This document shows, one piece after another, positions 12,359-41,499 of a stretch of DNA of 60,674 bases. Each line of letters starts with the position of its first letter. Within the stretch, counting starts at the first letter, position 1. The notes below the pieces were generated by a model, which was given only the letters and a program-made list of their open reading frames with translations, did no database searches and had not been told where the DNA came from. Origin of the DNA: an uncultured Verrucomicrobiota bacterium (lineage in GTDB: Bacteria > Verrucomicrobiota > Kiritimatiellia > CAIKKV01 > CAITUY01); NCBI GenBank assembly GCA_964535015.1, contig CAZHRU010000005.1, positions 1 through 60,674 on the forward strand, given 5' to 3'. The position numbers were made by a program, and so were the translations under genes.

Positions 12359-12374
12359 TGTGATATGTGTCCCA
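12359..12374. promoter_or_regulatory. CRP-like box TGTGA-TATGTG-TCCCA
   Basis: 9/10 match to the CRP consensus with AA/TT flanks, in the AT-rich divergent promoter between resB and the c554 gene. Confidence 0.55.
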
Positions 12375-15538: not shown

Positions 15539-15595
15539 CGCGAAAAGGCCATTAATCCTCCGTCACGCACTGTGATGGAGGGACGTCAGGCACAT

Positions 15596-15625
15596 GGGGC
15601 TCCCGCAAAGGAGCCCCGTTCTTTT
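15596..15625 (+). terminator. Rho-independent terminator
   Basis: GGGGCTCC-cgcaaa-GGAGCCCC followed by GTTCTTTT. Confidence 0.75.
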
Positions 15626-15643
15626 GACAGACAGGTCTATGGA

Positions 15644-16891
15644 ATGAACGAGGAATTAACACCCGCCACCCCCGCCCCACCGCAACAGTCCCGGCCATAT
15701 ACCGTCCTGGACCTGTTGGCTTCGGTCAAGTTTTCCGCCGCCGTCGTCCTCCTCTTGATCCTGGCCTGTATAGCAGGAACCGTGTTGCCACAGGATGGAC
15801 AGGTTGACCAGTATCTTGTCTCGCATCCGGACGCAGCCGGGCGTATGGCGATTCTGACGGCCGTTGGCCTCACCCACGTCTTCAGTGCCGGCTGGTTCAC
15901 CGCGCTGCTCTGCACCCTTTCCGCCTGCCTTGTCGTCTGCAGCCAACGCAGGTTTAAGGCGATGATCCGCTCCTCAGGCGCCCTGCGGGGTCGCGCCATC
16001 GCCTCCCTGATCCTCCATTCAAGCTTCCTCCTCATCCTCGCCGGCGCCCTGATCCGCTCGATCTGGGGAGTGAGCGGTCATATCCAGTTCAGGGAAGGCC
16101 AAACCCTCGCCGGGTTTGAGAGCAATAAGGGATCCCGCCCCCTTCCCTTTTCTATCCGCCTGGAGACGTTCGAAATCGAACGCTACCCGGTCGAATCCAC
16201 TACCGCCGCTCAACATGAGAACGAGTCCGTATCCCAATGGGGTCAACTGACGGTGCGATGGCCTGAGAAGGAAGTGATCACCAACGTCCCCGCCATTCCG
16301 GGAACGGAACAGATTCTTAAGCCGGAGGACGAACCCGCCTCATCCACAAACACCATGAAGGTCCGCGTTCTCCGTTACGTACCTGATTTCGTCATGGACA
16401 CCGCCGCCCGGGAAATCAGGACCCGCTCACTTGCCCCCAGAAATCCCGCCATTCAAGTTGTGGTCGAAACACCGGAAAAAACAACCACCAACTGGCTGTT
16501 TGCACGTCATCCGGAATTCGGCCTGCAGATGAATGGCGAGCACGCCGAATCGGCTCCACTTGCCAATTTGTATTACCGGCATTCCTCCAGACCGCAGGCA
16601 CCGCCCCCCATCAAAACCTTCCGCAGCACCGTGGCCATTCTGGACAAGGATCACCCGCAACCGTTGATCCGCACCTTGGCGGTCAATTCACCCCTGTCTC
16701 ATCGGGGCTACACCTTCTACCAGTCAGGGTATGATGAACGTGATCTCACCTGGACCTCCTTGCAGGTCGTGCGGGATCCGGGCGTCATGATTGTCTACGC
16801 CGGTTTTGTACTGACGCTGGTCGGTCTGGTCATGCTCTTTTGCCTCTACCCGCAGAAGCCCGTAAAGCCAAATACATCCCGCTATTCGTAG
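15644..16891 (+). CDS. resB: Second ResB/CcsB paralog (no adjacent ccsA)
   Basis: GTVLPQ, FSAGWF, LILHSSF, VNSPL..RGYTFYQSGY, VRDPG; shares an inserted domain with the first ResB. Start placed downstream of the terminator. Confidence 0.85.
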   Translation: MNEELTPATPAPPQQSRPYTVLDLLASVKFSAAVVLLLILACIAGTVLPQDGQVDQYLVSHPDAAGRMAILTAVGLTHVFSAGWFTALLCTLSACLVVCSQRRFKAMIRSSGALRGRAIASLILHSSFLLILAGALIRSIWGVSGHIQFREGQTLAGFESNKGSRPLPFSIRLETFEIERYPVESTTAAQHENESVSQWGQLTVRWPEKEVITNVPAIPGTEQILKPEDEPASSTNTMKVRVLRYVPDFVMDTAAREIRTRSLAPRNPAIQVVVETPEKTTTNWLFARHPEFGLQMNGEHAESAPLANLYYRHSSRPQAPPPIKTFRSTVAILDKDHPQPLIRTLAVNSPLSHRGYTFYQSGYDERDLTWTSLQVVRDPGVMIVYAGFVLTLVGLVMLFCLYPQKPVKPNTSRYS

Positions 16892-16894
16892 TTT

Positions 16895-16910
16895 TGTGAC
16901 ATTGCCCACA
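16895..16910. promoter_or_regulatory. CRP-like box TGTGA-CATTGC-CCACA
   Basis: 9/10 match to the CRP consensus, upstream of the OmcE-like gene. Confidence 0.55.
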
Positions 16911-17052
16911 CACTCATCCATCTGCGAATATATAACCATAGTTTCGGAATCACTCTTGGGATTCCGGAAAGCACGGGGAGAGATCCTCGCGCTGTTGACG
17001 GAAGGACGCTTTTTTGAGTAAGAACTCGTTTCAAAGGAAAGGTCAGTCGAAA

Positions 17053-17709
17053 ATGAATAAGAGGATGAAGTGGATGTCGGTGATGGTCGCGGGAACACTG
17101 GTGCTGTCAGGGGCGTCGATCGCGAAGGCGGGTATTGCCGGTTCAGCGCACGACTTCAGCACCGAACTATGGAGTGCCGGGACCTTGTGCGGAGTGTGCC
17201 ATGTCGCTCACAACGCCAAAACACCTCAATTGATTCCCTTGTGGAGCCATGAAACAAGTTCGGATGCCGGGTACACAATGTATACCAGCGCCACGTTCAA
17301 TGCGGCCGGAACCATTTCCGCGGCCCCTAGCGGTCCCTCGAAAGTCTGCCTGAGTTGCCATGACGGCACAGTTGCCGTTGACAATTTCGGCGGCACTACC
17401 AATGGAACAACCTACACAACGGCGGGATACGGCCTCCTCTCGAAGGACCTTAGCAATGATCACCCGATCTCCTTCACCTATGACTCCTCACTCGTGAGCG
17501 CGGACGGCTATCTGCATGAACCCACTACCGCAACTGTTCCCAACATGGGGACCAGGACCATTTCGCAGGTCATGCTGACCGACGGCAAAATGGAATGTTC
17601 GTCCTGCCATGACGTGCATCGGCAGAAGGGAAGTTCCGGATCCGACTCGACCCTGCTGATCGTCAATGGCGCAGGGAGCAAGTTGTGCTTGACCTGCCAC
17701 AACAAGTAG
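17053..17709 (+). CDS. omcE: OmcE-like secreted tetraheme cytochrome c (cytochrome nanowire family)
   Basis: About 218 aa with signal peptide; S.HD.S...CGVCH..HN...PLW...YTSAT...S..CLSCHDG...DLSNDHP..F...ECSSCHDVH...GSKLCLTCH.K follows the motif order I recall for Geobacter OmcE. Confidence 0.75.
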   Translation: MNKRMKWMSVMVAGTLVLSGASIAKAGIAGSAHDFSTELWSAGTLCGVCHVAHNAKTPQLIPLWSHETSSDAGYTMYTSATFNAAGTISAAPSGPSKVCLSCHDGTVAVDNFGGTTNGTTYTTAGYGLLSKDLSNDHPISFTYDSSLVSADGYLHEPTTATVPNMGTRTISQVMLTDGKMECSSCHDVHRQKGSSGSDSTLLIVNGAGSKLCLTCHNK

Positions 17710-17762
17710 GTAATCGTGCCCAGCGTAGGTTGCGCTGAGGTCCGCGACGATCGTTATCCATG

Positions 17763-17793
17763 GGCATCCGCCGGGAAACCGGCGGATGCCTTT
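17763..17793 (+). terminator. Strong 12-bp GAAA-loop hairpin after the OmcE-like gene (terminator or mRNA stabiliser)
   Basis: GGCATCCGCCGG-GAAA-CCGGCGGATGCC-TTT. Confidence 0.7.
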
Positions 17794-17816
17794 AGGTTAT
17801 TCTGGGACCGCCGGAA

Positions 17817-19010
17817 ATGGGGGCAAAACATACGATGCGACACATAATTCGACCTTTTTTGCTTGCGATCAGCGCCGTCTGCCTTCTGGCCGGGTGCGCC
17901 ACCCACCGCACCGGCGCAATTGCCCCGGTCTTCTACCCGCCACCCCCGGATCCGCCCCGCATTCAGTTCCTGAAGACCTTCTCCACCTCCCGGGATATCA
18001 ATCCGCAAAGCCGGTTCTCTCAATTTATCCTGGGCCCGCTTAGTCCGCGCCCCATCATCAAACCCTACGGGATTACCATCCACAGCAACTCCATTTACGT
18101 CTGCGATACCATGCTGGGCGGTCTCGCCGTTTTGGACCTCGAAAAACCCGCCATGGACTACTTTGTGCCTGCGGGACCGGGCCGCCTCCTCAAGCCCATC
18201 AACATTGCCATCGCTCCGGACGGAACCCGCTATGTCGCGGACTCCGAGCGAGGTCAGGTTCTCGTGTTCAACCCCACCGGAGACCTCCTCGGAACCATCG
18301 GCAAGAAAGCCGAACGCCGACAGAAGGCTTCCGAGCGAAGCGCCGAACCCGCACCTGGGAAGCCCGTCACAGACAAAAAGGAAAGCGCGGATTCGGAGAC
18401 CGACTCAGTGGACATGCGCCCCATCGATGTCCTCGTGAATTCCAATCGCCTCTTTGTCGCCGACCTGAAGGGACACTGCGTCCGCGTCTTCGACAAGCAA
18501 ACACTGGCGCCGGTCATGACCATTCCCGCGGGAGTGTCTACGAATGAAGAAGCCAAACTGCTATCCCCAACCAACCTGGCGCAAGATCAGCAGGGGCGCC
18601 TGTATGTGTGCGATACCGGCGCTTTCCGCGTCAAACTCTATGACAGCGACGGAACCTTCATCCGGTCGTTCGGTCGTTACGGTAACCGGTACGGGGAACT
18701 GGCTCGGCCCAAAGGAGTGGCTGTGGACCGTGAGGGTCGCGTCTATATCGCCGACGCCCAACTCGACGCCATTCAGGTCTTTGATCCCGCCGGTCAGTTG
18801 CTCATCTCTTTCGGCCAACCGGGCACCTCCCCAATCCCGCTTATCCTCCCGGCCAAGGTGGCCATTGACTATGATCACATCAAGTACTTCCAAAAGTATG
18901 TCGCGCCGGGATTCACACTAGACTATCTATTGCTGGTCACCAGCCAGTACGGCGAACGGAAGGTCAACGTGTATGGATTTGGACACTCCGTCAAACAAGA
19001 TTCGCCCTGA
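17817..19010 (+). CDS. NHL-repeat beta-propeller lipoprotein
   Basis: Lipobox LLAGC; repeats P.GIA.D..GR.YV.D. Confidence 0.85.
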   Translation: MGAKHTMRHIIRPFLLAISAVCLLAGCATHRTGAIAPVFYPPPPDPPRIQFLKTFSTSRDINPQSRFSQFILGPLSPRPIIKPYGITIHSNSIYVCDTMLGGLAVLDLEKPAMDYFVPAGPGRLLKPINIAIAPDGTRYVADSERGQVLVFNPTGDLLGTIGKKAERRQKASERSAEPAPGKPVTDKKESADSETDSVDMRPIDVLVNSNRLFVADLKGHCVRVFDKQTLAPVMTIPAGVSTNEEAKLLSPTNLAQDQQGRLYVCDTGAFRVKLYDSDGTFIRSFGRYGNRYGELARPKGVAVDREGRVYIADAQLDAIQVFDPAGQLLISFGQPGTSPIPLILPAKVAIDYDHIKYFQKYVAPGFTLDYLLLVTSQYGERKVNVYGFGHSVKQDSP

Positions 19011-20067
19011 CCCGGCCGCGGACTCCGCACCGTCAGCGCAACGGCATTATTGGCGGTTCGCCAAGACGCCATGGCGGGCATTAGCCGCCTGTGCCTTTGT
19101 TCTGCTGATCGCCGGGTGCGCCACTCGCACCCGTCACGAATGGCTGGTACTGTTCTTCGACGGCGTCCCCCCTGAACAAGGATCCAGCACCAACTCGGTA
19201 ATCTCCACCGCCACGGCGGGCACCAGCGCCGCCACAACCAATGCGCCCTCACGCCCCTTACCCCCTGCGCCCATTGTACACTCCCCCTATGCCGACCGCG
19301 ACTGCAACGCCTGCCACGAATCCGCCTTCTCGCAAAAAATGCGCGGAAAAACGAAAGACGTCTGCCTGGGTTGCCACACCGATCTCATGGATAAGGCCAA
19401 ATCCAAACATAGCCCGGCCGACGAAGGTGAATGCCTGACCTGCCACAACCCTCATGAGTCCCCGCAGAAATTCCTTCTGACCAAAAAACCAACCGCCTTG
19501 TGCATCAAGTGTCATGACGACCTGTCCAAGGTCAAGCACCCGCACGCCCCGGTCCAAGCAGGTGAATGCCTGGAATGCCATAAACCTCACGGCTCCGCCC
19601 AACCCCATCTGCTGTCCAGCAAACCTGAAACACTTTGCGGAACATGTCATACGGACATGGCCAAAGGGAAATATCCTCACGCTCCCGCTGAAGGCGGTGA
19701 GTGCAGCGCCTGCCATAAACCACACGGCTCCGATCTCCCCCATATGTTGGCAAAAAAGAGCGGAGACCTCTGCTTCTCCTGTCATGACAAATTCACCGCC
19801 AAGTTTATGCATGCCCCAGCCAAGGGCGGCGAGTGCCTCGAATGTCACCGCCCCCACGTCTCTTCAGAACCGGCGCTGGCCAGAAAATCCATCAAGACAC
19901 TGTGTTTCGATTGCCACGACAAGGACGAAGTGAAAGGTAAAACCGCCCACTCCACCATGGGGGATACCGCCTGCACCAAGTGCCACGACCCCCACGGCAC
20001 CGACCGCAAGTTCATGCTCAAGTCCACCAACAGCGTCCCGACCGCCGCCGCACCCGCAACCCCATGA
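18973..20067 (+). CDS. 11-heme lipoprotein cytochrome c (doubled-CXXCH repeat type)
   Basis: Lipobox LIAGC then FFDGVP; 11 CXXCH in repeats H.P...G.C..CH.PH.S....LL......LC..CH. Confidence 0.9.
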   Translation: MDLDTPSNKIRPDPAADSAPSAQRHYWRFAKTPWRALAACAFVLLIAGCATRTRHEWLVLFFDGVPPEQGSSTNSVISTATAGTSAATTNAPSRPLPPAPIVHSPYADRDCNACHESAFSQKMRGKTKDVCLGCHTDLMDKAKSKHSPADEGECLTCHNPHESPQKFLLTKKPTALCIKCHDDLSKVKHPHAPVQAGECLECHKPHGSAQPHLLSSKPETLCGTCHTDMAKGKYPHAPAEGGECSACHKPHGSDLPHMLAKKSGDLCFSCHDKFTAKFMHAPAKGGECLECHRPHVSSEPALARKSIKTLCFDCHDKDEVKGKTAHSTMGDTACTKCHDPHGTDRKFMLKSTNSVPTAAAPATP

Positions 20068-22049
20068 CGACGACACGGCACAACGTGCGACGGATCCTGC
20101 TGGCACCCCTCTGCGCCTTCCCTCTTGTGGTCTCCGCACAACCGTCCACCACGGCGCCCCAACTGCTTACGCTGTGGCTCGAAAGCCCATCCATCGTCTT
20201 CGATGCCGAGAAGAAGACTGAAACCCGGAAGAGTCCCGATCCCCTCAACTCCTACGAACAGGAAACCGTCCGCCTGAAACCCTCCTTGGACTTTACCCTC
20301 CGGGGTTCGGTCTACCACCCGAACTTCCTTGAATTCTACTTCCACGGCATGGAGGGCTTGGACTCCGAGGACACCACAACCACCCTCGCCGATGAATACA
20401 ATAGCAGTAGCCAAAGTTGGTTCCATAATTACAACGCCAACGCCTTGTTGTTCAGGGAGAAGCCGGTGACGTTCCAAGTCTTCGCCGAAAAGAACAGAAC
20501 TCGTCGCGAGTACGACTTCTTCTCGACTGTGGAAGTGGATTCACAGCGCTACGGAATGAGTAGCGGAATCAACAACACCAGAGTCCCGGCCTCGGTCAGC
20601 GTTTCTCATCTGGATGAAACCGTGGATGACCAGTTCCGACCTTCCACCCTCACCGAGGATGTGGCGGGCGTCACGCTCCGAAGCCAGCGCGGCATCGACA
20701 ATACCACTGACTTCAACTACCAGTACCGCAACTACGAACGGATGGAGAATGATGACTTCTCACAGTCCGGCACCGAAAACTCCGTTCAGATTGGCGATAC
20801 CGAACGTTTTGGCCTGCGCGATCAATTCAGGCTTGATTCCAACCTGTCCGCCTTCGACCTCGCCGACGATAACGGCTCCTATAACTCGTTGTCGCTCCGC
20901 GAGTCCCTGATCAACCAACATCGCCAGAATCTTGCGAGCATCTACCGGTACAACTTCAGACAGAACGAGCGCGACACCAGCCGGAACCATACGCATGAGG
21001 CCAGCGCGGGTCTCCGCCACAGACTTTACGAAAGTCTGGTTTCTTCCGGCGAACTCCACGGCGAACGCTCCGTTGACGACAGCGCCGAGGACCGCCTGCA
21101 AAAGGACCTCTATGGCGTCAACCTCGGCGAAGACTACACCAAACGCCTCGGCCTCTGGGGCCGCCTGAGTGCCGGCTATCATGTCCGGATCGATCAGGAA
21201 CGATGGAACGCCACCGGCAACGGAGGATTTTCCGTCATCGGCGAAATGCACACCCTTGCCGACGGCATCGTAACGTTACTGAACTACCCGGTGGCGAATA
21301 TCCAGGGCATCCGGGTCATGGACCTTACCGCCTCTCGCCTCTACCTGCCGGGCGTGGACTACACTGTCATCCCCCACGGCAACCGCGTGGAAATCAGGCG
21401 CGGCGTGACCGGCATCATTCCCAACGGAGGATCCGTTCTTGTGGACTACGATGCCACCAAGGCCAACTCCTCCAACTTCCGCTCCTTCGGCGACATGGCC
21501 TCGCTCCGGTTGGACCTTTTCGGGGATTTGATCGGCCTCTATACACGGCATGGACGGCAACGGTATTCCGGGGACGGCGCTCCTTTGTACCAGGAGTATA
21601 ACAGCACCCTGCTCGGCATGGATATTCACTGGGAGTTCTTCCGCGGCGGCGCCGAGCATGAGATTTATGATTCCGAACAGTCCCCCTATACCGCCACCCG
21701 CCTGTTCGAGACCTTCACTTTCAACCCCAACACCTATTCCATGCTCACCTTCGACTTCCGCCAATCCAACCTGCAATTCCCGGACCAGACGGAAGATCAG
21801 GACATCTACCAATTCATCGGCCAATACCAAGTCAGGGTAACCTCGACCTTGTCTCTCACCGCGGAGGGCGGCCAACAGTTCGAACGCGGATTCGGCGGCG
21901 ACCGTGATGTCACCACCTGGCGCGCCGGCGCCGACTACGCCATCGGACGCCTGACGTTCTCGGCCCGCTACGACCTCCAGGACGAATCCTATCGCGATGA
22001 GGAACGGGACCGCCGCATCATCCACTTCATAGCGAAGAGGGTCTTCTGA
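20064..22049 (+). CDS. Outer-membrane beta-barrel, putative porin of a porin-cytochrome conduit
   Basis: ATG overlaps the cytochrome stop (ATGA); signal peptide; amphipathic strands rich in Y/D/N/S; C-terminal Phe (KRVF). Confidence 0.75.
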   Translation: MTTTRHNVRRILLAPLCAFPLVVSAQPSTTAPQLLTLWLESPSIVFDAEKKTETRKSPDPLNSYEQETVRLKPSLDFTLRGSVYHPNFLEFYFHGMEGLDSEDTTTTLADEYNSSSQSWFHNYNANALLFREKPVTFQVFAEKNRTRREYDFFSTVEVDSQRYGMSSGINNTRVPASVSVSHLDETVDDQFRPSTLTEDVAGVTLRSQRGIDNTTDFNYQYRNYERMENDDFSQSGTENSVQIGDTERFGLRDQFRLDSNLSAFDLADDNGSYNSLSLRESLINQHRQNLASIYRYNFRQNERDTSRNHTHEASAGLRHRLYESLVSSGELHGERSVDDSAEDRLQKDLYGVNLGEDYTKRLGLWGRLSAGYHVRIDQERWNATGNGGFSVIGEMHTLADGIVTLLNYPVANIQGIRVMDLTASRLYLPGVDYTVIPHGNRVEIRRGVTGIIPNGGSVLVDYDATKANSSNFRSFGDMASLRLDLFGDLIGLYTRHGRQRYSGDGAPLYQEYNSTLLGMDIHWEFFRGGAEHEIYDSEQSPYTATRLFETFTFNPNTYSMLTFDFRQSNLQFPDQTEDQDIYQFIGQYQVRVTSTLSLTAEGGQQFERGFGGDRDVTTWRAGADYAIGRLTFSARYDLQDESYRDEERDRRIIHFIAKRVF

Positions 22050-23071
22050 TGCCCGTATTCACCAAGACGGCCAAGACCTCCCTCGTGGCAATTGGCACGA
22101 TCTCCTTCATGGCTGCCCTCGGCAGTGCCGATGCCGCCGCCCCATCCCCTGCCCCCTCATGGCCACCCCCGCCAGCCGGGGAACGCATCAGGTATGTGCA
22201 GAGCATGTCGACCCCCGCCGACATCGGCGCCCGGGTTTCCGTCTGGGGCCGACTCAAGGGCCTCATCACCGGCATACGATCGGACCGGGTCGCCATGAAC
22301 AAACCCTTTGGCGTTTCGACCGATCAGCAGGGCAACCTGTGCGTCACAGATACCGCCGCCGGAGCCATCCTGCTGTTCAATCGTGCCGACCACCGTTTCC
22401 AGCGGTTGGACTCGATCAGCGGCAGACCCCTCCCCTCCCCGGTCGCCGCCCTCGTCCACAACGGCCAACTGTTTGTCGCCGACTCCGCACTGGCAAAGGT
22501 CCTGGTCGCGGACCTCGACGGGCGTCTGCAATTCGAAATCCAGAACCTGATCCGCCCCACGGGACTAGCCCTGTGTGACGGTAAATTGTTCGTGGCGGAT
22601 GCCGGCGCGCACTGCATTGCCGTCTTCGACCTCAAGGGAACCCTCCTCCACCGGTTAGGCTCACGCGGCACCGGACCGGGCGAGTTCAATTCCCCAACCC
22701 ACATTTCCAGCGGCACTAACCATCGCATTCTTGTCACCGACTCCCTTAATGAACGTGTCCAGATTCTTGACATGGAAGGACGAAATCTTGGTATCATTGG
22801 ACGAGTCGGAAGCGGCGGGGGTCAATTCATCCGCCCAAAGGGGGTGGCAGTGGATAGTTTCGGTCACATCTACGTCGCCGATGCCCTGCATGACAACATT
22901 CAGGTGTTCGACGAGACCGGTCGCTTTCTCCTGAACTGGGGAGAATCAGGGTCTGGACCCGGCGAATTCTGGATGCCTTCAGGCATTGCCATCAGTTCGA
23001 AGAACGAAATCTTTGTGGCCGATTCGTACAATAGCCGCGTTCAGGTTTTCCAATACGTGGGGAAGGAATGA
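22049..23071 (+). CDS. NHL-repeat beta-propeller protein (secreted)
   Basis: Signal peptide; repeats GEFNSPTHI, GQFIRPKGVAVDS.G.IYV.D, GEFWMPSGIA. Confidence 0.9.
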   Translation: MPVFTKTAKTSLVAIGTISFMAALGSADAAAPSPAPSWPPPPAGERIRYVQSMSTPADIGARVSVWGRLKGLITGIRSDRVAMNKPFGVSTDQQGNLCVTDTAAGAILLFNRADHRFQRLDSISGRPLPSPVAALVHNGQLFVADSALAKVLVADLDGRLQFEIQNLIRPTGLALCDGKLFVADAGAHCIAVFDLKGTLLHRLGSRGTGPGEFNSPTHISSGTNHRILVTDSLNERVQILDMEGRNLGIIGRVGSGGGQFIRPKGVAVDSFGHIYVADALHDNIQVFDETGRFLLNWGESGSGPGEFWMPSGIAISSKNEIFVADSYNSRVQVFQYVGKE

Positions 23072-24861
23072 TAACGATCCGCATTTCAGCAAACCGATCC
23101 CAAGAGGCAGGGCGCACCGTCCCGGGGTGCCGCCTCGGGCTGGCCCTTTGCGTTTGGATCCTTCTGACAGTGACCGGCGCCGAGGCGAAAGGTGTCAGCG
23201 GCTCCAAACACGACCTCTCCGCCTCCGGTGGCAGTTCCATCAGGGCGTCCGCCGAAGGCGACGTGTGTATCTTCTGCCATGCCCCCCACAATGGATCCAG
23301 CGAAGCCCCACTCTGGAACCGCTACACACAAAAGACATTCTATACCCCCTATTCCAGTCCAACGCTCAAGGCAACCATCGGTCAGCCAACCGGCGCGTCC
23401 AAACTCTGCCTGAGTTGCCACGATGGAACCGTTGCCCTTGGCATGGTGCGTAGCCGCTCGAAACCAATCCCGCTTTCAGGCGGACACAGCAAAATGCCGG
23501 CAGGCCGCGCCAAACTGGGAACCGATCTCTCCGACGATCACCCCATCTCCTTCACGTATGACGCCGCCTTGCTCGCCAAAAACACGCAGTTAAAAAGCCC
23601 GGCGTCATTGAAAACCGCCGCGCGCCCCGACAAGTCCGGCCAGGTTCAGTGCACCTCCTGCCACGATCCACACAACAATGAATACGGCAACTTTCTGACC
23701 ATGAACAACGCTCAATCCGCCTTGTGCATATCCTGCCACGACATGACGTACTGGGCCACCTCCGACCATCGCACCTCTGCAAAACAGTGGAACGGGCAAG
23801 GCCAGAATCCCTGGCCGCATACCGAGGGCAAGACCGTTGCCGACAACGGGTGCGAGAACTGCCATTCCCCCCACCAAGCCGGAACCGCCGCCCACCTGAT
23901 GAACTTTGCCGGCGAGGAACAAAATTGCCTGCCCTGCCACAACGGGAATGTCGCCTCAAAGAACATCCAGGCGGACTTGGCCAAACGCAGTCGCCATGAT
24001 GTGGCCGCCACGACCGGGATTCACGATCCCACCAAGAGCCCCTCCGCCTCCGCACGCCATGTGGAGTGCGTGGATTGCCACAATCCGCACGCCGCTCGCG
24101 GCGGCGCCACCGCCCTCTCCAGCAAAGCATCCCCCCCCGGACTCGACAGCACCCTCCTCGGCGTGGCCGGCGTCAGCGCCGCCGGAAGCGCCCTGAAGGC
24201 CGCCAGTCACGAGTATGAGATCTGCTTCCGCTGCCACGAAAACCAGACGCCCGGCCAGACCGCCACCGTGTCGCGCAAGTCCAACCCCTCCAGCCTGCGG
24301 CTGAAGTTTTCCGCAGGCAACGCCTCTTATCACCCCGTCGTGGCGGCCGGACACAATCCCGATGTCCCAAGTCTGATTTCCTCGTACAACGCCTCCAGCA
24401 TCATCAAATGCACCGACTGCCATAATAGCGATCAGGGTCCCGCCGCGGGCGGCCAAGGCGCAAGAGGCCCGCATGGCTCAACGTATGCCCCACTTCTTGA
24501 ACGGAAACTGGTCACCACCGACTTCGGCTCGGAAAGTCCCGCGGCCTACGCTCTGTGCTACAAGTGCCATAACCGGCAAAGCATTCTGAACAACGAGAGT
24601 TTCCCCGAACACAGCCGCCATATCGTGGATGAGAAGACCGCCTGCACCACCTGCCATGACTCGCATGGCGTCAATGAATCCACCGCCCTCATCAACTTCA
24701 ACACGGCCTACGTGTCACCCGGCGCCAGCAGCATCTCATTCCAGCACACAGGCCGGTTCCAGGGAAGTTGTTCCCTCACCTGCCACGGCACCACCCATGA
24801 CAACCAGACCTATGGAACACCCGCCATGTTTTTGAAACCCGCAACAAAACGGCGACGATAG
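23068..24861 (+). CDS. 12-heme cytochrome c (11 CXXCH + C-terminal CX3CH) with an N-terminal OmcE-like module
   Basis: Motifs counted in the translation; the first four hemes align motif by motif with the 17053-17709 protein. Confidence 0.9.
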   Translation: MITIRISANRSQEAGRTVPGCRLGLALCVWILLTVTGAEAKGVSGSKHDLSASGGSSIRASAEGDVCIFCHAPHNGSSEAPLWNRYTQKTFYTPYSSPTLKATIGQPTGASKLCLSCHDGTVALGMVRSRSKPIPLSGGHSKMPAGRAKLGTDLSDDHPISFTYDAALLAKNTQLKSPASLKTAARPDKSGQVQCTSCHDPHNNEYGNFLTMNNAQSALCISCHDMTYWATSDHRTSAKQWNGQGQNPWPHTEGKTVADNGCENCHSPHQAGTAAHLMNFAGEEQNCLPCHNGNVASKNIQADLAKRSRHDVAATTGIHDPTKSPSASARHVECVDCHNPHAARGGATALSSKASPPGLDSTLLGVAGVSAAGSALKAASHEYEICFRCHENQTPGQTATVSRKSNPSSLRLKFSAGNASYHPVVAAGHNPDVPSLISSYNASSIIKCTDCHNSDQGPAAGGQGARGPHGSTYAPLLERKLVTTDFGSESPAAYALCYKCHNRQSILNNESFPEHSRHIVDEKTACTTCHDSHGVNESTALINFNTAYVSPGASSISFQHTGRFQGSCSLTCHGTTHDNQTYGTPAMFLKPATKRRR

Positions 24862-24874
24862 GTCCGAATACCCT

Positions 24875-27568
24875 ATGAGGTCCATGACCATGGATGCGAC
24901 ACCAACACCTGCAAACCATCAGAACGGGTTGCTCATCCGCGCGGTTTCGGGTCTGTACCTCGTGAGCCTGCTCTGGTGCATCCCTGCGGCATCCCTGGCA
25001 AGTGACCCGCCCCATACCAATGCGAACGCCTGCGCCACCTGTCACCTGACCCATAATGCGTTTGGCCCGCTCCTCCTGACCAACGGGGTTGCCAATCTGT
25101 GCTTGTCGTGCCACTCCGCGGGCGGCGAGGCATCCGCCAAGCCCTTTGCCTCCGCCAACCAGGCATGGCCCTGGCCGGGTCTACCCGCCGCTACAAACGC
25201 CTCCGGCACCTCCCACCGCTGGGATGCCGGCGCGGCAGGCCATGTCGTCTTCCAGGGCGGCGCCGTGACCTCCTCCACCGGCATCATCTTTCCCGGCGGC
25301 GTCTACACCGGCGCCTACCCGAAGACCTACACCGTGACGATCACCAATGCGGGCAACGCCGGGGTCGCCCGTTTCAACTGGACCGCCACCCTCCCCGGCG
25401 GCGGTGCCGGCACGAACCTGCTCGCCGCCACCAACACCCCCCTCGACCAGGGCATTCTCCTCACCTTCGCCAACGGAACCGGCGTATCCTTCCAAGTCAA
25501 TGACCGCTGGATCATCCCCGTCCGTCCCGATCTGCGCGCACCCACCAATACGTTCATGCTGACCCGCCTCGTCAATGGATCCGTCGTTTGCTCCACCTGC
25601 CACGACCAGCATAGCCAACTCAAGACGCCCTTCGATCCGGCCGCGCCGACGAACACCACCTCTGCCGGCCGTCATTTCATGCGCGTGGCTAACGATCAGA
25701 ACCAGATGTGCCTGGACTGCCACGCCACCCGCAATGTCACCAACGCGATTCAGGGATCTCACCCAGTGGGCATCAGCACCCTTTCCAACACCCTGTACAA
25801 ACTCCCCGCCTCCCTGCCTCTCTCGAAAACCATCAACCATGTCGGTTGCCTGACCTGCCACACTCCCCACTACGCCCCCGCCAACAACGGCATGCTCCTC
25901 CGCATGACCAATACCCTCGCCCTCTGCGTGGATTGCCACCAACTGGCCAACACCAATACCCCCGGTTGCCACTTCATCACGACCAATGCCGCCACCCTCT
26001 GGCCGGGCGGCCAATACGGGTCCCTCCTGACCAATCGAACCGATGCCGCCTTGCAGGGCTCCTGCCTGAACTGCCACAGGGTACACGGCTGGCCCGATGC
26101 CGCCAATCCCACCAATGACTACCCGCGTCTCCTCGCCGACCGCGAGGAAAACCTCTGCTTTACCTGCCACGACGGCAACGGCCCCGCCGCCAAGGATGTC
26201 TACGTCGCCTTCACCAACGTCTATCATCATACGGTCCTCGATGCCGAACAGCGCCCGGGCCGCACCGTGGAGTGCCTGGACTGCCATAACGTCCATCAGT
26301 CCATTTCCAACGGCCATGTCTACACCAATTCGGCAACCTCCACCCGCAACCTGGTATCCAACCCGCTCAAGGGAGTCCCCGGTGTCGCCATCACCTACTC
26401 ATCCTTGACCAATTTCTCCGGAGTAACCACAAACCTGTACACCGCCATTCCCCAGTCCACCAATGAGTACCAGATCTGCATGAAGTGCCATTCGGGATAT
26501 GGTTACCCCGTCAATACCGCCGGAACCGCCTCTTTCACCACCAACACCTCCGCGGTAAGCGGCTCCGGCACCCAGTGGTCCAGCAACCTGGTGGGACAGA
26601 CACTCTTTCGCGCCAATGACCCGACACTTTACGTCATCACCGACGTAACCAGTGCAACCAGTCTATCCATCACCCCTCCCTATTCGGGGGCGACTGCCGC
26701 CGGCCAGTCCTTCACCATCATGGGGTTGCCGCCGGGCCTCACCCCCGTCTACACCAACGGAACGGCCGCCTTCACCAACAACAGCACCACCGTCAAGGGA
26801 ACCAGTACCACGTGGGGATCCGGAATGATCGGCCTGTGGATCGCACCCACCTCCACGCCTGCCGTCCTCTACAGGATCACGGCAGTCCTCAACACAACAA
26901 CCCTCACCATCGTCCCGGCCTATGCCGGCGCAAACAGTACCGGTCAGCGCTACCACATAACCGGAGGCACCGACCTCGCCCAGGAATTCAGCCCGATGAA
27001 CATGTCGGGGCACCCCATCTACACGGGCCTGAGCAACTACGTCAACACCCTCGCCCCGCGCGGACTCCTCGCCACCGCCCTCCGCCCGCCATGGAACGCC
27101 AACGTCGGCAACCAAACCATGATGTGCTCGGATTGCCACGACGACACGACCACCAATTACGTCCCCGGCGCTGCTCAGGGTCCCCACGGTTCCGCCTACC
27201 AATACATCCTGCGGGGCCCCAACGGCAACAACTGGCCGAATGTCACCTCCTTCGCCTCCAGTTGGTGCGCCAATTGCCACATCGACAACGTCGGCAAAGA
27301 AATGCACACCCGCGGTGAACACACTGCCGCGAACTGCTACGGATGCCACATCGTCATACCCCACGGCGGCAAGGTCTCCCGCCTCATTGGCGACCGCGAC
27401 ACCATGCCGGCCCGCTACGCCTGGAACAACACACTCACCAACATGCAGGTTTCCGCCTTCAAGAAGACCACCGCCAACAGTTACGCCGAGGGATCCAGCG
27501 GGAACTGCGCGGCCGCCTGCAGTAGCACCGACAAGCATCCCTCAATTTCAGGAGCCGAAAACTGGTGA
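24875..27568 (+). CDS. 13-heme secreted cytochrome c with inserted beta-rich domains
   Basis: 13 CXXCH, a terminal CAAACSSTDKH, two repeated ~68-aa inserts and one N-terminal beta insert; T/N-rich. Confidence 0.9.
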   Translation: MRSMTMDATPTPANHQNGLLIRAVSGLYLVSLLWCIPAASLASDPPHTNANACATCHLTHNAFGPLLLTNGVANLCLSCHSAGGEASAKPFASANQAWPWPGLPAATNASGTSHRWDAGAAGHVVFQGGAVTSSTGIIFPGGVYTGAYPKTYTVTITNAGNAGVARFNWTATLPGGGAGTNLLAATNTPLDQGILLTFANGTGVSFQVNDRWIIPVRPDLRAPTNTFMLTRLVNGSVVCSTCHDQHSQLKTPFDPAAPTNTTSAGRHFMRVANDQNQMCLDCHATRNVTNAIQGSHPVGISTLSNTLYKLPASLPLSKTINHVGCLTCHTPHYAPANNGMLLRMTNTLALCVDCHQLANTNTPGCHFITTNAATLWPGGQYGSLLTNRTDAALQGSCLNCHRVHGWPDAANPTNDYPRLLADREENLCFTCHDGNGPAAKDVYVAFTNVYHHTVLDAEQRPGRTVECLDCHNVHQSISNGHVYTNSATSTRNLVSNPLKGVPGVAITYSSLTNFSGVTTNLYTAIPQSTNEYQICMKCHSGYGYPVNTAGTASFTTNTSAVSGSGTQWSSNLVGQTLFRANDPTLYVITDVTSATSLSITPPYSGATAAGQSFTIMGLPPGLTPVYTNGTAAFTNNSTTVKGTSTTWGSGMIGLWIAPTSTPAVLYRITAVLNTTTLTIVPAYAGANSTGQRYHITGGTDLAQEFSPMNMSGHPIYTGLSNYVNTLAPRGLLATALRPPWNANVGNQTMMCSDCHDDTTTNYVPGAAQGPHGSAYQYILRGPNGNNWPNVTSFASSWCANCHIDNVGKEMHTRGEHTAANCYGCHIVIPHGGKVSRLIGDRDTMPARYAWNNTLTNMQVSAFKKTTANSYAEGSSGNCAAACSSTDKHPSISGAENW

Positions 27569-28977
27569 TTCCCCCCCTCCAGCGTGTTCTCCGTTCGCCG
27601 GGGATTGTGATGACTGAAATTGCGGCCTTGGCTCTCGCCTGTTCGCTGGGCGTACTGTGGCCAACCCTTGCCGTCTTCCAATCCCCCTGGTTCCTCGTCA
27701 TAACCGCCATTGCAGCCCTCTCCCTGCTGATCGCCGTCCGTGATCAGGGGCGCCGCCTGCTCTGCGGCGACGTCACGGCCAGGCGGGTCGGCTCCATGAT
27801 GCTTCATCTCGGACTCATCGCCATCATCGCCGCCGGTGCCTGGCGCGCCCTTTTCTCCTCTGAGGCCGTCGTGGATCTCATCGAAGGCGAAACCCTACCC
27901 CCCGCCCCAACCGCCTGGACCCATCAACCTCCCGGCCTGCTGGCCACCCCCTTTCACCTGACCCGGCCCATCACCCTGGAGGCCCTCCATGGAAGCCGCT
28001 ATCCCGACGGCCGCCTTCGCGATCTCTCGGCCACCCTCTCGGCCGGAACCGTGGCCGTCAATCACGACCTCATCCTCCCGGGCGGACGTATCTTCCTTGA
28101 CCAGACGTTCGGTCCCGCCGCCCTCCTTGAGTGGCATCCGCCGCAGAAGTCGGCCGTATTGCTCGATCCTGAAACCCGCACGGCAACCGCCACGGGGCCG
28201 GACGGACTAACGGCATACCTGCGCGCCCCCCCCATCCGCCCCGATCATGTCGAAGTTCGCGTCATGCGGAATAACGGCCTCCTCTTCTCCGGTGAACTCC
28301 GCCCCGGACAAACCCTGTCCCTCCACGGTGGCGCAACGCTGACCTTGCGCGGCATCCCCCTCTGGACTCGCCTCCGCGGCAGTCACGACCACTCGCACCG
28401 CCTCGCCTACCCCGGCTTTGCCCTCATCCTGATCGGTTGTATCCTGCTCTTCGCACGCACTGCCCCGCCTCAAGGACTGCGCGTCGTCGCGTCCGCACCC
28501 CTCTTCCTGTCGGCCATCCTTCTCGCCGGGTGTAACCGCACCTCAACCGAGGAAGCCCGCCAACTCGTCCTCCGCTACAACACCCTCGTTGCCGAGGCCT
28601 ATCGCCGCGGCGACCCTCACTTGATTGAACCCGTCGTCAGCCTCAACGAAGGCAAGAAACTCACCGGCCTCATCGGCGTTCGCTCGGACCTGGGCCTCAC
28701 CCTCGACTCCGAACTGCTGTCCCTCACGCTCATCGCTGCTGAGCAGCGCGCCCGCAAACTGCGGGTTCAAACAAAAGAGCAGTGGCGCTATCGTGACCGC
28801 AAAATCGGCACCGGTGAACAGGTCGGCGAGGAGTCCTCAGATTCCTACGAGATGCTGTACCTGTTCACTCAGACCAACCGGACATGGATAGTGGATGAAA
28901 TCCAATTCACCTCCCCACCCAGGATCGGCCGCAAACAGATGACCTGGCAGGAATCGCGTAATCCGGAAAAACCATGA
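27565..28977 (+). CDS. Reduced ResB-like protein fused to a C-terminal lipoprotein-like alpha/beta domain
   Basis: F.SPWF, MMLHLGL, V.VNHDL, D..H.LAYPGF, then a hydrophobic stretch with LLAGC and a further ~150-aa domain in the same frame. Confidence 0.7.
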   Translation: MIPPLQRVLRSPGIVMTEIAALALACSLGVLWPTLAVFQSPWFLVITAIAALSLLIAVRDQGRRLLCGDVTARRVGSMMLHLGLIAIIAAGAWRALFSSEAVVDLIEGETLPPAPTAWTHQPPGLLATPFHLTRPITLEALHGSRYPDGRLRDLSATLSAGTVAVNHDLILPGGRIFLDQTFGPAALLEWHPPQKSAVLLDPETRTATATGPDGLTAYLRAPPIRPDHVEVRVMRNNGLLFSGELRPGQTLSLHGGATLTLRGIPLWTRLRGSHDHSHRLAYPGFALILIGCILLFARTAPPQGLRVVASAPLFLSAILLAGCNRTSTEEARQLVLRYNTLVAEAYRRGDPHLIEPVVSLNEGKKLTGLIGVRSDLGLTLDSELLSLTLIAAEQRARKLRVQTKEQWRYRDRKIGTGEQVGEESSDSYEMLYLFTQTNRTWIVDEIQFTSPPRIGRKQMTWQESRNPEKP

Positions 28978-29801
28978 ACGTTTTCACCCTTGAAACCATC
29001 CTGCACTGGACCGGCGTCGGCCTCTACATCCTGGCGGTCATCACCTTCGCCAACGCCATCCTCTTCGCGCATCCCGACCGCACCCGCCGCGCCTGCTGGA
29101 TCACCGCCATCGGCCTCCTCCCCCACTCCGCCGCCCTCGTCGTCCGCTACCTCAACGTCGGCCATGGCCCCTACATGCTGAAGTACGAGGTCCTCTCCTC
29201 CAACGCCTGGATCGCCATTGCCATGCTCCTCGTCTTCATCTGGCGCCGCCCCGCCTGGTCCGCCGCCGCCCTCGTCGTCCTGCCGGCCGCCATCCTGATG
29301 GTTGGCCTGGGCCTCTTCACAAATCCCGAGGCGCGGAACCTGCCACCCACCCTGCGATCCATGTGGCTGGTCTTCCACGTCCTCTTCAATAAACTCGCCG
29401 TCGGCGCCTTCCTGCTATCCGTCGCCACAGCAACCTGCCTGCTTCGCAAACTGGGCGGCGCTTCCGCCCGCTGGCTCGACCGCCTCCCCGCACCCGATGC
29501 CCTTGAGGCCTACACCGTCCGCTTCATCGGATTCGGGTTCATCTTCTGGACCACCACCATCGGCGCCGGCGCCATCTGGGCCCACCAGTCCTGGGGCCGC
29601 TACTGGGCCTGGGACCCCATCGAAACCTGGTCGCTCGTCACCTGGCTGGCCTACGCCACCCTCCTGCATATCAAGGTGTTCTTCCGCCTCTCGGCGCGCA
29701 CCACCGCCTGGAGCACCGTCGCCTGCTTCATCCTCTCGGTCCTCACCATCCTGATCTTCCCGTTTGTGTTCCCTTCCATGCACTCAGCCTATTTCCAATA
29801 A
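28974..29801 (+). CDS. ccsA: Second CcsA/ResC paralog
   Basis: WGRYWAWDPIETW, FHV and MHSAY; multiple TM helices. Confidence 0.9.
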   Translation: MNVFTLETILHWTGVGLYILAVITFANAILFAHPDRTRRACWITAIGLLPHSAALVVRYLNVGHGPYMLKYEVLSSNAWIAIAMLLVFIWRRPAWSAAALVVLPAAILMVGLGLFTNPEARNLPPTLRSMWLVFHVLFNKLAVGAFLLSVATATCLLRKLGGASARWLDRLPAPDALEAYTVRFIGFGFIFWTTTIGAGAIWAHQSWGRYWAWDPIETWSLVTWLAYATLLHIKVFFRLSARTTAWSTVACFILSVLTILIFPFVFPSMHSAYFQ

Positions 29802-31252
29802 TGAGCCGTAAACACCCGGAAATCATGCTGGTCACCCCGCCCTACCATTCCGGGGTCGTGGAGTCCGCCGGTTCCTGGCTGCCCCTCGGCCTCCTTTACG
29901 TGGCTGGCGCCTTGCAACGCGCCGGTTACGGCGTCTCCCTCTATGACGCCATGACCCGTTTCCACACCCTGGAACAGGTCCGGCAAACCATCCGGCGGGA
30001 ACAACCGGACGCCGTCTTTGTCTCCTGCATCACCGCCACCGTCATGGACGGCATGGACGTCTGCCGTGTGGCCAAGGAGGAGTTCCCCGACACCCTCACC
30101 GTCCTCGGCAACACCCATCCCACGTTCATGTATGAGGAAATTCTCCGGGATCACCCCGAGGTGGATGTCATCGTCCGCGGCGAAGGCGAGATTACCTCGG
30201 TGGAACTAATGGACGCCTGGAAAACCGGAGCCAACCCCGGCAACGTCCGCGGCATCGCCTTTCGCGACGGAAACTCCATCGTGGCGACACCCTGCCGCCC
30301 GTTTATCCCCAACCTGGATTCCACCGCTCCGGCCTGGGACCTGGTCCCCTGGAAGGAATATACGTACCGCCCCAAACCCGGATCAATCCTCGCCGTCGTT
30401 TCCTCATCCCGAGGCTGTAAACAACATTGCTCCTTCTGCTCCCAGCGCCTGTTCTGGGAGGAATCCTGGCGCGCCGTCTCTCCCGAATCGTTCGTCAATG
30501 AACTCGAGATGCTCCGACGCCGTCACGGGGTCAACGTCGCCATGATCGCCGACGAAATCCCCACCCTGGACGCCGCACGCTGGGAACGGATTCTCGACCT
30601 CCTGATCGAACGCGACCTCGGCATCGCCCTCCTGCTGGAGACACGGGTTGACGACATTCTACGCGACGCCCACCTCCTGCCCCGCTACCGCCAGGCTGGC
30701 ATCGAACACATCTATGTCGGCGTCGAATCCGTCGACCAGGCCACCCTGGATCTCTTCAAGAAGGACGTCAAGGTCGAGCAGAACAAACGCGCCATCGAAC
30801 TCCTGAACCAGCATGACATCATCTCGGAGACCTCCTTCGTCATGGGTCTACCCGGCGACACGCCCGCGAGTATGGACCGCACCATCGAACTGGCCAAGTT
30901 CTACGACCCGGATATGGCGTTCTTCCTCGCCATCACCCCCTGGCCCTACGCCGATATCTATAATGACGTCAAGGACCACATTGCAGTTTGGGACTACCGG
31001 AAGTATAATTTGGTCGAACCGATAATCAAACCCGACACCATGACGTTGGCCGAGGTTCATGGACATCTCTTCCGGGGCTTCCGTGATTTTTACATGAACA
31101 AGATGAAGCAACTTCCAACCATGCCGGAGTGGAAGCAGGCGTTTATGAAATCACTGATGAAACTCTTGATGGACCATTCCTACCTGAAGGACCAAATGGG
31201 CGGCATGAACCCCCCTTCTATTCAACCTCTTCCCCCTACCCCAGTGAGGTGA
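29801..31252 (+). CDS. Cobalamin-binding radical SAM protein, BchE-like
   Basis: N-terminal B12 domain (PLGLLYVAG); CKQHCSFC cluster motif; ETRVDDILRD and TPWPY segments resemble BchE as I recall it; coupled to ccsA (TAATG). Confidence 0.8.
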   Translation: MSRKHPEIMLVTPPYHSGVVESAGSWLPLGLLYVAGALQRAGYGVSLYDAMTRFHTLEQVRQTIRREQPDAVFVSCITATVMDGMDVCRVAKEEFPDTLTVLGNTHPTFMYEEILRDHPEVDVIVRGEGEITSVELMDAWKTGANPGNVRGIAFRDGNSIVATPCRPFIPNLDSTAPAWDLVPWKEYTYRPKPGSILAVVSSSRGCKQHCSFCSQRLFWEESWRAVSPESFVNELEMLRRRHGVNVAMIADEIPTLDAARWERILDLLIERDLGIALLLETRVDDILRDAHLLPRYRQAGIEHIYVGVESVDQATLDLFKKDVKVEQNKRAIELLNQHDIISETSFVMGLPGDTPASMDRTIELAKFYDPDMAFFLAITPWPYADIYNDVKDHIAVWDYRKYNLVEPIIKPDTMTLAEVHGHLFRGFRDFYMNKMKQLPTMPEWKQAFMKSLMKLLMDHSYLKDQMGGMNPPSIQPLPPTPVR

Positions 31253-36970: not shown

Positions 36971-37828
36971 ATGAGTTTACCCTTGGAAACGGCGTTGGGA
37001 ATCGGCGGAACGACTCTCTACTGCCTTTCAGCAGTCCTGGCCCTTGCCGCCCTCTTGCGGTCGGGCGATCGAAAAGATAACGCCCCGGTAATCCTGCTGG
37101 CAGGCGGCATGTTGTTGCTCACGGCCTTGTTATCAATGCGACTCTGTTGCGCCGGTTACGTGCCCGTTTTTTCACGGTTTGACGCCTTGGCCGGTTACAC
37201 CCTGGCCCTCAGCGCCGCCTACCTCCTGTTGTCCGTCTTCCGCCCCACTCGCGGCATCGCCGCCATTCTCGTCCCCTATGCCGCCGTCTGCCTGCTTTGC
37301 GGAGTGTCCGCCCTTCGAATGGGCGCCGGGCCCCCCCTGCCCGTCCAGGGCTTCTGGCTGGTCTCCCATGTGATGTCCGCCTACGCCGCCTTCGGAGTCT
37401 TCACCCTGGCCAGCCTCACCGCCGTGCTATACCTCGTTCAGGACAGCAATCTCAAGCGCAAGCGCCTCGGCCTGGTCTGGGAACGCCTCCCTTCCCTGGA
37501 AACCCTCGACCACCTCATGAGCCGTCTGGCAGGGGTCGCCTTTCTCCTCCTCACCATCTCCGTCGTTCTCGGCTTCGTCCTGATCCGCCAGAGTGGCGGC
37601 GGCGACGACTGGTTTACCGACCCCAAGGTCCTGGCCACCATCGTCACCTGGATCGTTTTGGCCGTCTTCGTCCACATGCGCGCCAGCGCCGACCGGCACG
37701 GACGGGGAATCGCCCTGATGGCCCTCGTCGGCCTGGCCTGCCTGCTCTTCGCCTTCGTGGGCGTACCCCTGGTGGCCCACACCCTGCACTCGTTCCTGCA
37801 AATGCACTCCGGAGTGCCCCCGCCATGA
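36971..37828 (+). CDS. HemX/CcsA-family membrane protein
   Basis: SHV, LPSLETLD, WFTDPKV and C-terminal H; eight TM-like segments; directly upstream of hemA. Confidence 0.85.
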   Translation: MSLPLETALGIGGTTLYCLSAVLALAALLRSGDRKDNAPVILLAGGMLLLTALLSMRLCCAGYVPVFSRFDALAGYTLALSAAYLLLSVFRPTRGIAAILVPYAAVCLLCGVSALRMGAGPPLPVQGFWLVSHVMSAYAAFGVFTLASLTAVLYLVQDSNLKRKRLGLVWERLPSLETLDHLMSRLAGVAFLLLTISVVLGFVLIRQSGGGDDWFTDPKVLATIVTWIVLAVFVHMRASADRHGRGIALMALVGLACLLFAFVGVPLVAHTLHSFLQMHSGVPPP

Positions 37829-39159: not shown

Positions 39160-39177
39160 CAGAGAAAGAAGAAACAC

Positions 39178-41486: not shown

Positions 41487-41499
41487 CCCAGGGGACCCC

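Follow-up and report, generated by a model that had tools for sequence, protein, structure and literature searches.

A tetrahaem cytochrome of the OmcE superfamily and a downstream hairpin at the head of an omcE/uet-type cluster in an uncultured Verrucomicrobiota bacterium

Introduction

OmcE is the building block of the conductive protein nanowires of Geobacter. To our knowledge, cytochrome nanowires have been solved from few organisms, and their secretion, anchoring and dosage are still unexplained. The locus described here raises two questions: is the OmcE-like tetrahaem cytochrome that it encodes the subunit of such a filament, and is it made in excess over the products of the genes behind it? 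The gene lies at 17053–17709 on the forward strand of a 60,674-nucleotide stretch (the window; contig CAZHRU010000005.1 of assembly GCA_964535015.1, positions 1 to 60,674) from an uncultured Verrucomicrobiota bacterium. An initial annotation, made from the letters alone, had taken it for a nanowire subunit with hallmarks of high-copy expression, namely its own CRP-like box, a strong ribosome-binding site and a perfect hairpin ahead of a long run of accessory genes. Our analysis leans, with a little better than even confidence, towards an exported tetrahaem of the OmcE superfamily that heads an omcE/uet-type cluster for extracellular electron transfer and serves as an abundant extracellular polymerising subunit, its mRNA excess being set by the hairpin.

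Results

The subunit gene encodes an OmcE homologue

17053–17709, + strand: OmcE-family tetrahaem c-type cytochrome of 218 aa, assigned by phmmer, AlphaFold2 (AF2) modelling, Foldseek and motif alignments

The initial description of this frame as a tetrahaem protein of about 218 residues is borne out. Its four CXXCH motifs begin at C46, C99, C182 and C212, with haem-binding histidines H50, H103, H186 and H216 among ten histidines in total. Residues 1–26 (MNKRMKWMSVMVAGTLVLSGASIAKA, followed by G) read as a Sec-type signal peptide that carries an AXA site between AKA and G and no lipobox, the cleavage site being read by eye from the sequence rather than taken from program output. The distal-ligand histidines of OmcE align at H33, H53, H137 and H189, and these four residues, together with the four CXXCH motifs, are invariant across a 94-sequence alignment of relatives. 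In a phmmer search of Protein Data Bank (PDB) sequences, the protein found two matches in total, both full length and both OmcE: 7TFS (E 3.2e-19, residues 24–218) and 9YUQ (E 5.6e-19, residues 11–218).

Comparison of a predicted structure with OmcE had been proposed as a check, and it came out in favour of the assignment. The AF2 monomer model, built from 94 homologues, has a predicted local distance difference test score (pLDDT) of 87.6; its mature chain is ~17–18% helix and nearly all coil in the remainder, as against the ~17% helix and 80% coil published for OmcE (PMC13712944). Searched with Foldseek against the PDB, the model matched 7TFS alone (E 5.8e-9, template modelling (TM) scores 0.56/0.60, root mean square deviation 5.2 Å, 30% identity). 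Sequence and model both identify the 218-aa protein as a homologue of OmcE, and its predicted fold is that of OmcE. Haem attachment probably falls to the System II cytochrome c biogenesis genes on either side of the cluster:

15572–16891, + strand: ResB-like cytochrome c biogenesis (System II) gene, immediately upstream of the subunit gene (Pfam PF05140 ResB, E 7e-42)
27565–29801, + strand: second ResB-like gene and CcsB-like gene, a System II haem lyase pair (PF05140; TIGR03144)

The CcsB-like protein matches TIGR03144 with E 2.3e-40 and 138.9 bits, under the curated cut-off of 187.6. We also considered the near-invariant His66, in the PLWxH motif of the subunit, as a ninth, self-capping haem ligand, and put the idea aside on finding Arg or Lys in the same column of fused modules and of solved OmcE. 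Since this column is basic in the other clades, the alignment makes it likelier that the residue contacts a haem propionate as a basic side chain.

The subunit belongs to a clade apart from the solved filament proteins

A FastTree phylogeny of 184 OmcE-like modules from all loci, to which the 7TFS and 9YUQ proteins were added, places the 218-aa protein in clade A, which comprises 111 stand-alone sequences. Modules fused to the N termini of long cytochromes make up clade B (53 sequences), the sister of clade A with a support of 0.90, whereas 7TFS and 9YUQ fall outside A+B in a separate Desulfuromonadia clade of eight members; as the tree was rooted at its midpoint, only the unrooted splits are firm. 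The motifs follow a similar division, PLWxH occurring in 95 of the 127 stand-alone genes and PLWxR in 32 of the 59 fused modules. The OmcE-like identity claimed initially is thus upheld in homology and fold and not in clade: on the sequence evidence the protein is a clear OmcE homologue without being orthologous to the proteins that were seen as filaments. Since clade A stands apart from the solved clade, polymerisation of the 218-aa protein is something that we infer.

The clade B representative in the window belongs to one of the large cytochromes encoded downstream:

23068–24861, + strand: 12-haem cytochrome (597 aa), OmcE-like over its first ~230 residues (N-terminal module, 23068–23763)

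Its module (residues 22–225) matches 7TFS with E 2.2e-30, against 3.2e-19 for the stand-alone protein, with which it shares 43–46% identity. Fused module and stand-alone gene occur together in 31 of 34 well-covered clade-A loci. A 2026 mBio paper states that omcE operons encode no anchor or tip candidate. Because the fused module is the closer of the two to OmcE, the 12-haem cytochrome is a candidate filament base or adaptor. We put forward, tentatively and at clearly less than even confidence, a division of labour for most OmcE-like systems outside Desulfuromonadia, in which the PLWxH tetrahaem would polymerise, an OmcE-headed cytochrome of 11–12 haems would seed the wire and link it to an MtrAB-like conduit, and the hairpin would set the ratio between the two.

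At least two stand-alone OmcE-like genes are present in 19 of 84 loci, often in tandem (L003, L106, L108 and others). Such tandem copies could be major and minor subunits.

A strong hairpin follows the subunit gene

17721–17737, + strand: first, smaller stem-loop of the 3' untranslated region (UTR), from the minimum free energy fold
17763–17790, + strand: perfect 12-bp stem with a GAAA tetraloop of the GNRA class, a candidate leaky terminator or 3'-end stabiliser
17791–17803, + strand: interrupted U-rich tail UUUAGGUUAUUCU, read from the sequence

The perfect 12-bp GAAA hairpin is present exactly as first described. Its arms (17763–17774 and 17779–17790) are 12 nt each, 100% complementary and separated by the 4-nt loop; the fold contains 12 Watson–Crick pairs and one G–U pair and has a free energy of -29.4 kcal/mol (z = -5.8), a stability reached by none of 200 shuffled sequences. 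A single copy exists in the 3.0-Mb genome, which rules out a dispersed REP-like repeat as its origin.

We compared the element with its counterparts in the two closest relatives, L012 and L009, whose subunit proteins are 82% and 70% identical, respectively; relatives in this range of identity occur in the Logan assemblies SRR24319164, SRR24319181 and SRR24319188. In L012 the main stem carries one compensatory change (G–C to U–A) and one C–G to U–G change; in L009 one base is lost, leaving a 1-nt bulge. Both stems are still stable, at -22 to -23 kcal/mol with z of about -3.3 to -3.6, and the smaller stem-loop at 17721–17737 likewise keeps its position in both relatives though its sequence has changed. 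Looking across the family, we searched the 160 nt 3' of the subunit gene for the best hairpin in 85 non-redundant loci. Hairpins with z < -3 were found in 39 of the 85 loci versus 3 of 234 coding control windows, and a stem with a T-run in 44 of 85 versus 19 of 234, an enrichment that, the controls being coding windows, is due in part to the way intergenic DNA ordinarily differs from coding DNA, terminators being frequent behind genes. Overall, about half of the surveyed loci (44–54 of 85) have a terminator-like hairpin immediately behind the subunit gene. The elements take the form of textbook terminators in AT-rich phyla, with 6–9 T in spacers of 100–250 nt. The Desulfuromonadia loci, which were found with the solved OmcE sequences and include a Geobacter MAG (metagenome-assembled genome) encoding a protein with 80% identity to the OmcE of G. 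sulfurreducens, also show a terminator-like hairpin directly after omcE in those examined, with a large open reading frame (ORF) 106–191 nt further on.

How would such an element act? As an intrinsic terminator it has the GC-rich stem-loop, whereas its U-tract is interrupted (UUUAGGUUAUUCU), and a consensus rule demanding at least five T in the eight nucleotides after the stem called no site within 16500–18200. The next gene starts 26 nt (start codon at 17817) or 44 nt (17835) after the stem, a gap that leaves no room for a promoter. One may suppose that the hairpin is instead an efficient terminator, or a processing or stability element, that ends a monocistronic unit, so that the subunit gene and the genes behind it would be two separately regulated units with no partial termination. 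The very strong stem (-29 kcal/mol) and the canonical terminators of AT-rich relatives, with spacers of 100–250 nt that are able to hold a promoter, speak for this arrangement, and here a second promoter would be placed inside the 3' end of the subunit gene or in the 53-nt stretch before the hairpin. However, only ~26–65 nt separate hairpin and next start in the window and in L009, a consensus scan of 16500–18200 called no sigma-70 promoter, the U-tract is interrupted, and omcS of G. sulfurreducens sets a precedent in which monocistronic and read-through transcripts are both documented (PMC2680965). We regard two fully separate units as improbable, at roughly the weight of a minority view.

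Taken together, conservation, the family survey, the lack of promoter room, the interrupted U-tract and the omcS precedent favour a leaky terminator and/or 3'-end stabiliser that keeps subunit mRNA above accessory mRNA. The hairpin is the best-supported regulatory element at the locus. In pilus operons, subunit excess is commonly set by a hairpin that follows the gene for the major subunit.

The genes behind the hairpin resemble a minimal omcE cluster

The long run of overlapping genes reported initially is there as well. The subunit gene sits in a co-directional array (12367–32882) whose only sizeable spacers are the two that flank it, 161 nt upstream, after the ResB-like gene, and 107–125 nt downstream. 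Ten co-directional genes follow, the nine junctions between them measuring -38, -4, -1, -4, +13, -4, -4, -1 and +4 nt. In addition to the 12-haem cytochrome and the second ResB/CcsB pair listed above, they include:

17817–19010, + strand: NHL beta-propeller lipoprotein (Pfam NHL, E 3.6e-20), likely start 17835, lipobox LLAGC
18973–20067, + strand: 11-haem lipoprotein cytochrome, MtrA/DmsE-like (Paired_CXXCH, E 8e-68; 11 CXXCH)
20064–22049, + strand: large outer-membrane beta-barrel of 661 aa with ~29–30 strands (AF2 pLDDT 89, long antiparallel strands)
22049–23071, + strand: second NHL beta-propeller (Pfam NHL, E 1.7e-32), with a signal peptide and without a lipobox
24875–27568, + strand: 13-haem cytochrome of 897 aa

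The 11-haem lipoprotein matches the DmsE family TIGR03508 with E 3.9e-37, under the family cut-off. The barrel model, built from 39 homologues of related loci, retrieved only outer-membrane barrels in Foldseek, MtrB (6r2q_B) at the top with a TM score of 0.43, and the C-terminal residue of the protein is Phe. An insert of ~70 residues (~399–469) with short strands, placed after the 18th strand, might plug the barrel or lie at the surface as a domain.

Barrel and propeller together have been used to select those OmcE homologues with a potential for wire formation (PMC13712944), and here both are found, as the NHL lipoprotein (17835–19010) and the barrel (20064–22049); in composition, the accessory genes after the subunit gene match the published minimal omcE cluster (PMC13712944), which supports the initial annotation. 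The layout is not peculiar to this genome. In most related loci an NHL lipoprotein gene comes next after the OmcE-like gene, and the order OmcE-like protein, NHL protein, multihaem cytochrome, barrel, NHL protein is shared by the majority of 89 loci, which come from many phyla; L009 is syntenic with the window gene for gene.

The same genes can, however, be read as a porin–cytochrome conduit. The 218-aa protein would then be a non-polymerising tetrahaem partner. As a shuttle in the periplasm or a cap outside the cell, it would bind at ~1:1 either to an MtrAB-like conduit or to the 12-haem cytochrome through the OmcE-like module of the latter. An MtrA/DmsE-like 11-haem lipoprotein encoded beside a barrel that gives its best TM score with MtrB fits this picture, as do the clade of the subunit, distinct from that of the solved filaments, its codon usage, which gives no sign of very high expression (see below), and the uet cluster, which is built along the same lines and for which a conduit was the initial model (bioRxiv 10.1101/2022.05.06.490989). 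On the other hand, the two OmcE homologues that have been studied by experiment both polymerise, and the 218-aa protein conserves the eight haem ligands and a short N-terminal His arm. A terminator-like element that recurs across the family after the subunit gene alone suits a product needed in excess, and several clusters carry extra stand-alone copies in tandem. On balance a conduit with a monomeric partner appears unlikely, though it is a serious competitor, and we retain the polymerising subunit as the preferred reading.

A gene for a B12-binding radical SAM protein (29801–31252; BchE model E 1.8e-129, below cut-off) lies directly behind CcsB, its translation coupled to that of the cytochrome maturation genes, and the last of the ten downstream genes, after this BchE-like gene, encodes a third NHL protein. 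Near the cytochrome island, at 37297–48566, are haem-biosynthesis genes, among them hemA, hemL and a gene for an 832-aa fusion of porphobilinogen deaminase, tetrapyrrole methylase and uroporphyrinogen-III synthase.

Upstream elements and codon usage give little sign of high expression

16895–16910, + strand: CRP-like box TGTGACATTGCCCACA of doubtful function, one mismatch to TGTGA-N6-TCACA
16942–16969, + strand: imperfect inverted repeat of 10 nt in the upstream spacer (90% complementary, 8-nt gap)
17033–17043, + strand: Shine–Dalgarno region AAAGGAAAGGT, ~10 nt before the ATG, kept in L012 and L009

The CRP-like box named in the initial annotation exists, reading TGTGA-N6-CCACA and matching 9 of 10 consensus positions, yet it lacks conservation: in both closest relatives its right half is lost, the corresponding positions reading TGTCA-N6-TGCCG in L012 and TGTTG-N6-GGGTT in L009. 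As the half-site is not conserved, the function of the box is doubtful. Could a CRP/FNR-type regulator nonetheless drive the subunit gene from here, through a class II promoter? The geometry would allow it, the centre of the box lying ~41 nt before the start site predicted from TATAAC at 16931–16936. The box is one mismatch off consensus, and such sites are mildly enriched in the window (5 against 1.43 expected, with 1 of 100 shuffles reaching 5); a similar box, at 12359, has an exact match in L009, and the genome encodes one CRP/FNR-family regulator. Against this stand the missing right half-site in both relatives, the consensus scan, which passed no promoter, and a transcription start site that is only estimated from sequence. 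We consider such control of the subunit gene quite doubtful, the least probable of the alternatives discussed here.

The second box deserves mention on its own account. This CRP-like 16-mer, TGTGATATGTGTCCCA, lies at 12359–12374, upstream of a c554-like gene, and recurs unchanged at 4062–4077 of L009; if a CRP/FNR regulator acts on the island at all, it would, judged by sequence, be a better candidate than the box at 16895. A near copy, TGTCACATTGCCCACA, occurs at 16722–16737 of L009 within the coding sequence of an 890-aa cytochrome and, if in frame, would encode part of a CH..H haem motif. CRP-like 16-mers may therefore come from haem-motif coding DNA, which calls for caution on box counts in cytochrome islands.

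The remaining upstream elements are unexceptional. The ribosome-binding site had been called strong; it proves ordinary, with a duplex of AAAGGAAAGGT and the anti-Shine–Dalgarno sequence at -6.9 kcal/mol, about the median of the ribosomal-protein genes (-6.7), and with stronger pairing in three other genes of the cluster. The inverted repeat shows no visible conservation in L012 or L009. An Rfam scan of 16800–17900 (E <= 1) returned no match and hence no riboswitch or leader of a known family. For the upstream spacer, a sigma-54 promoter was entertained and dropped, since inspection by eye gave matches to GG/GCA only.

Codon adaptation was likewise rejected as a sign of high expression. With the ribosomal-protein genes as reference set, the codon adaptation index (CAI) of the subunit gene is 0.603, at the 43rd percentile, the medians in the genome being 0.695 for the reference and 0.629 for the background. 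Since codon bias in this genome is weak, the CAI test has little power and its result is a mere lack of support. The hallmarks of high-copy expression are therefore narrowed rather than abandoned: the hairpin and the gene spacing stand, whereas the CRP-like box is unconserved, the ribosome-binding site ordinary and the codon usage unremarkable.

The gene family is widespread across phyla and patchy near the host

At E <= 1e-5, a protein search gathered 5,353 proteins, a very large family, and more than 580 species-representative genomes match the family, from Bacteroidota, Calditrichota, Ignavibacteria/Chlorobiota, Gemmatimonadota, Verrucomicrobiota, Planctomycetota, Acidobacteriota, Gammaproteobacteria and others. 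Close to the host the distribution is patchy, with an OmcE-like match in 6 of 41 genomes of its genus, family or order. This patchiness could be due to gain by transfer, to frequent loss or to incomplete MAGs. The sole positive genome of the same genus has the fused form only.

As for the host lineage, HemL of the window is most similar to proteins of MAGs that bear the labels Verrucomicrobia (72%), Lentisphaerae (64%) and Verrucomicrobiota (59%). By this one marker we place the host, as Verrucomicrobiota/Lentisphaerae-like, in the PVC (Planctomycetes–Verrucomicrobia–Chlamydiae) group. Sulfatase and glycoside-hydrolase genes are also present in the window.

Discussion

A model for the cluster and the evidence bearing on it

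The 218-aa protein is most likely an abundant extracellular subunit. By analogy with OmcE, exported subunits would stack head to tail, with a histidine of the neighbouring subunit completing one haem of each, and the product would be a conductive filament or, at the least, a haem chain of many copies. The seed of this chain may be the OmcE-like module at the N terminus of the 12-haem cytochrome. That protein would in turn connect to the MtrA-like 11-haem lipoprotein threaded through the barrel of ~29–30 strands, and the two NHL propellers would help in assembly or provide a scaffold. At the level of mRNA, the second stem-loop of the 3' UTR probably stops part of the transcripts and shields the resulting 3' end, whereby subunit mRNA would exceed the mRNA of the ten downstream genes.

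Several of our results weigh against this account. The subunit belongs to clade A and the solved proteins elsewhere; the Desulfuromonadia loci have the order CcsB, cytochrome, NHL, cytochrome, NHL, omcE and an ORF of ~750 aa, and so do not begin with the subunit gene; between 16500 and 18200, the scans called neither a consensus terminator nor a sigma-70 promoter; the hairpin enrichment was gauged against coding windows; and the CAI of the subunit gene is middling. We nevertheless place the polymerising subunit slightly above an even chance.

Implications

A bacterium of the PVC group with sulfatase and glycoside-hydrolase genes has a complete OmcE/uet-type gene set. As the stand-alone OmcE-like proteins form a clade of their own, polymerisation requires its own proof in them, and the large OmcE-headed cytochrome, which nearly always co-occurs, is a candidate base. 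The recurrent hairpin after the subunit gene offers a simple handle on stoichiometric control. If the proposed pairing of a polymerising tetrahaem with a seeding multihaem cytochrome is true, it would answer the question, raised in mBio in 2026, of how OmcE nanowires are anchored and initiated, and would extend cytochrome nanowires to polysaccharide-degrading PVC bacteria. OmcE-like clusters have already been published for five phyla (PMC13712944), and the known picture is not fundamentally changed.

Comparison with known systems

The closest characterised proteins are the OmcE of Geobacter sulfurreducens (GSU0618, 7TFS) and the OmcE bundle protein of Desulfuromonas soudanensis WTL (9YUQ, PMC13712944). 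Like the 218-aa protein, they are tetrahaems of ~200 residues when mature, with four CXXCH motifs and four distal histidines in the same order, mostly coil with ~17% helix; local identity is 37% and the predicted TM score 0.56–0.60. Their loci share with the window beta-propellers, multihaem cytochromes, a large barrel, ResB/CcsB and a terminator-like hairpin after the subunit gene. There are also clear differences. OmcE has PLWNR where the 218-aa protein, as a member of clade A, has PLWxH; the subunit gene is the fifth of the OmcE cluster and the first of ours; and the window cluster adds the 12-haem protein with its OmcE-like N-terminal module and the 13-haem protein, a fused module not being detected in the Desulfuromonadia loci examined. 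The window cluster is without the glycosylation gene block of the OmcE system, its host, represented by a PVC-group MAG, lies outside the five phyla with published OmcE-like clusters (PMC13712944), and its protein is a putative filament former, whereas OmcE filaments have been solved.

For the transcript pattern that we propose, the nearest parallel is omcS–omcT of G. sulfurreducens, where a subunit gene gives monocistronic as well as read-through transcripts (PMC2680965). OmcS itself is a hexahaem protein unrelated in sequence to the 218-aa protein.

In architecture, the uet (undecahaem electron transfer) cluster of 'Ca. Tenderia electrophaga' and other Tenderiales (bioRxiv 10.1101/2022.05.06.490989) is similar, a likeness of gene content and order that refers to the published description. 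There, too, a tetrahaem (UetA) comes first, the barrel (UetC) has 28 predicted strands against ~29–30 in the window, two NHL proteins (UetH and UetI) are encoded, and ccsAB lies directly downstream; UetJ, an 11-haem protein predicted to be extracellular, has a counterpart by class in the 11-haem cytochrome of the window. The peptidyl-prolyl isomerase UetB, the cupredoxin UetF and the trihaem c7 proteins UetD, UetE and UetG, by contrast, have no such domains to match them among the window cluster proteins, and uet is proposed to serve electron uptake in an aerobic autotroph, whereas the window host carries sulfatases and glycoside hydrolases. The uet authors, too, raise polymer formation as a possibility (bioRxiv 10.1101/2022.05.06.490989).

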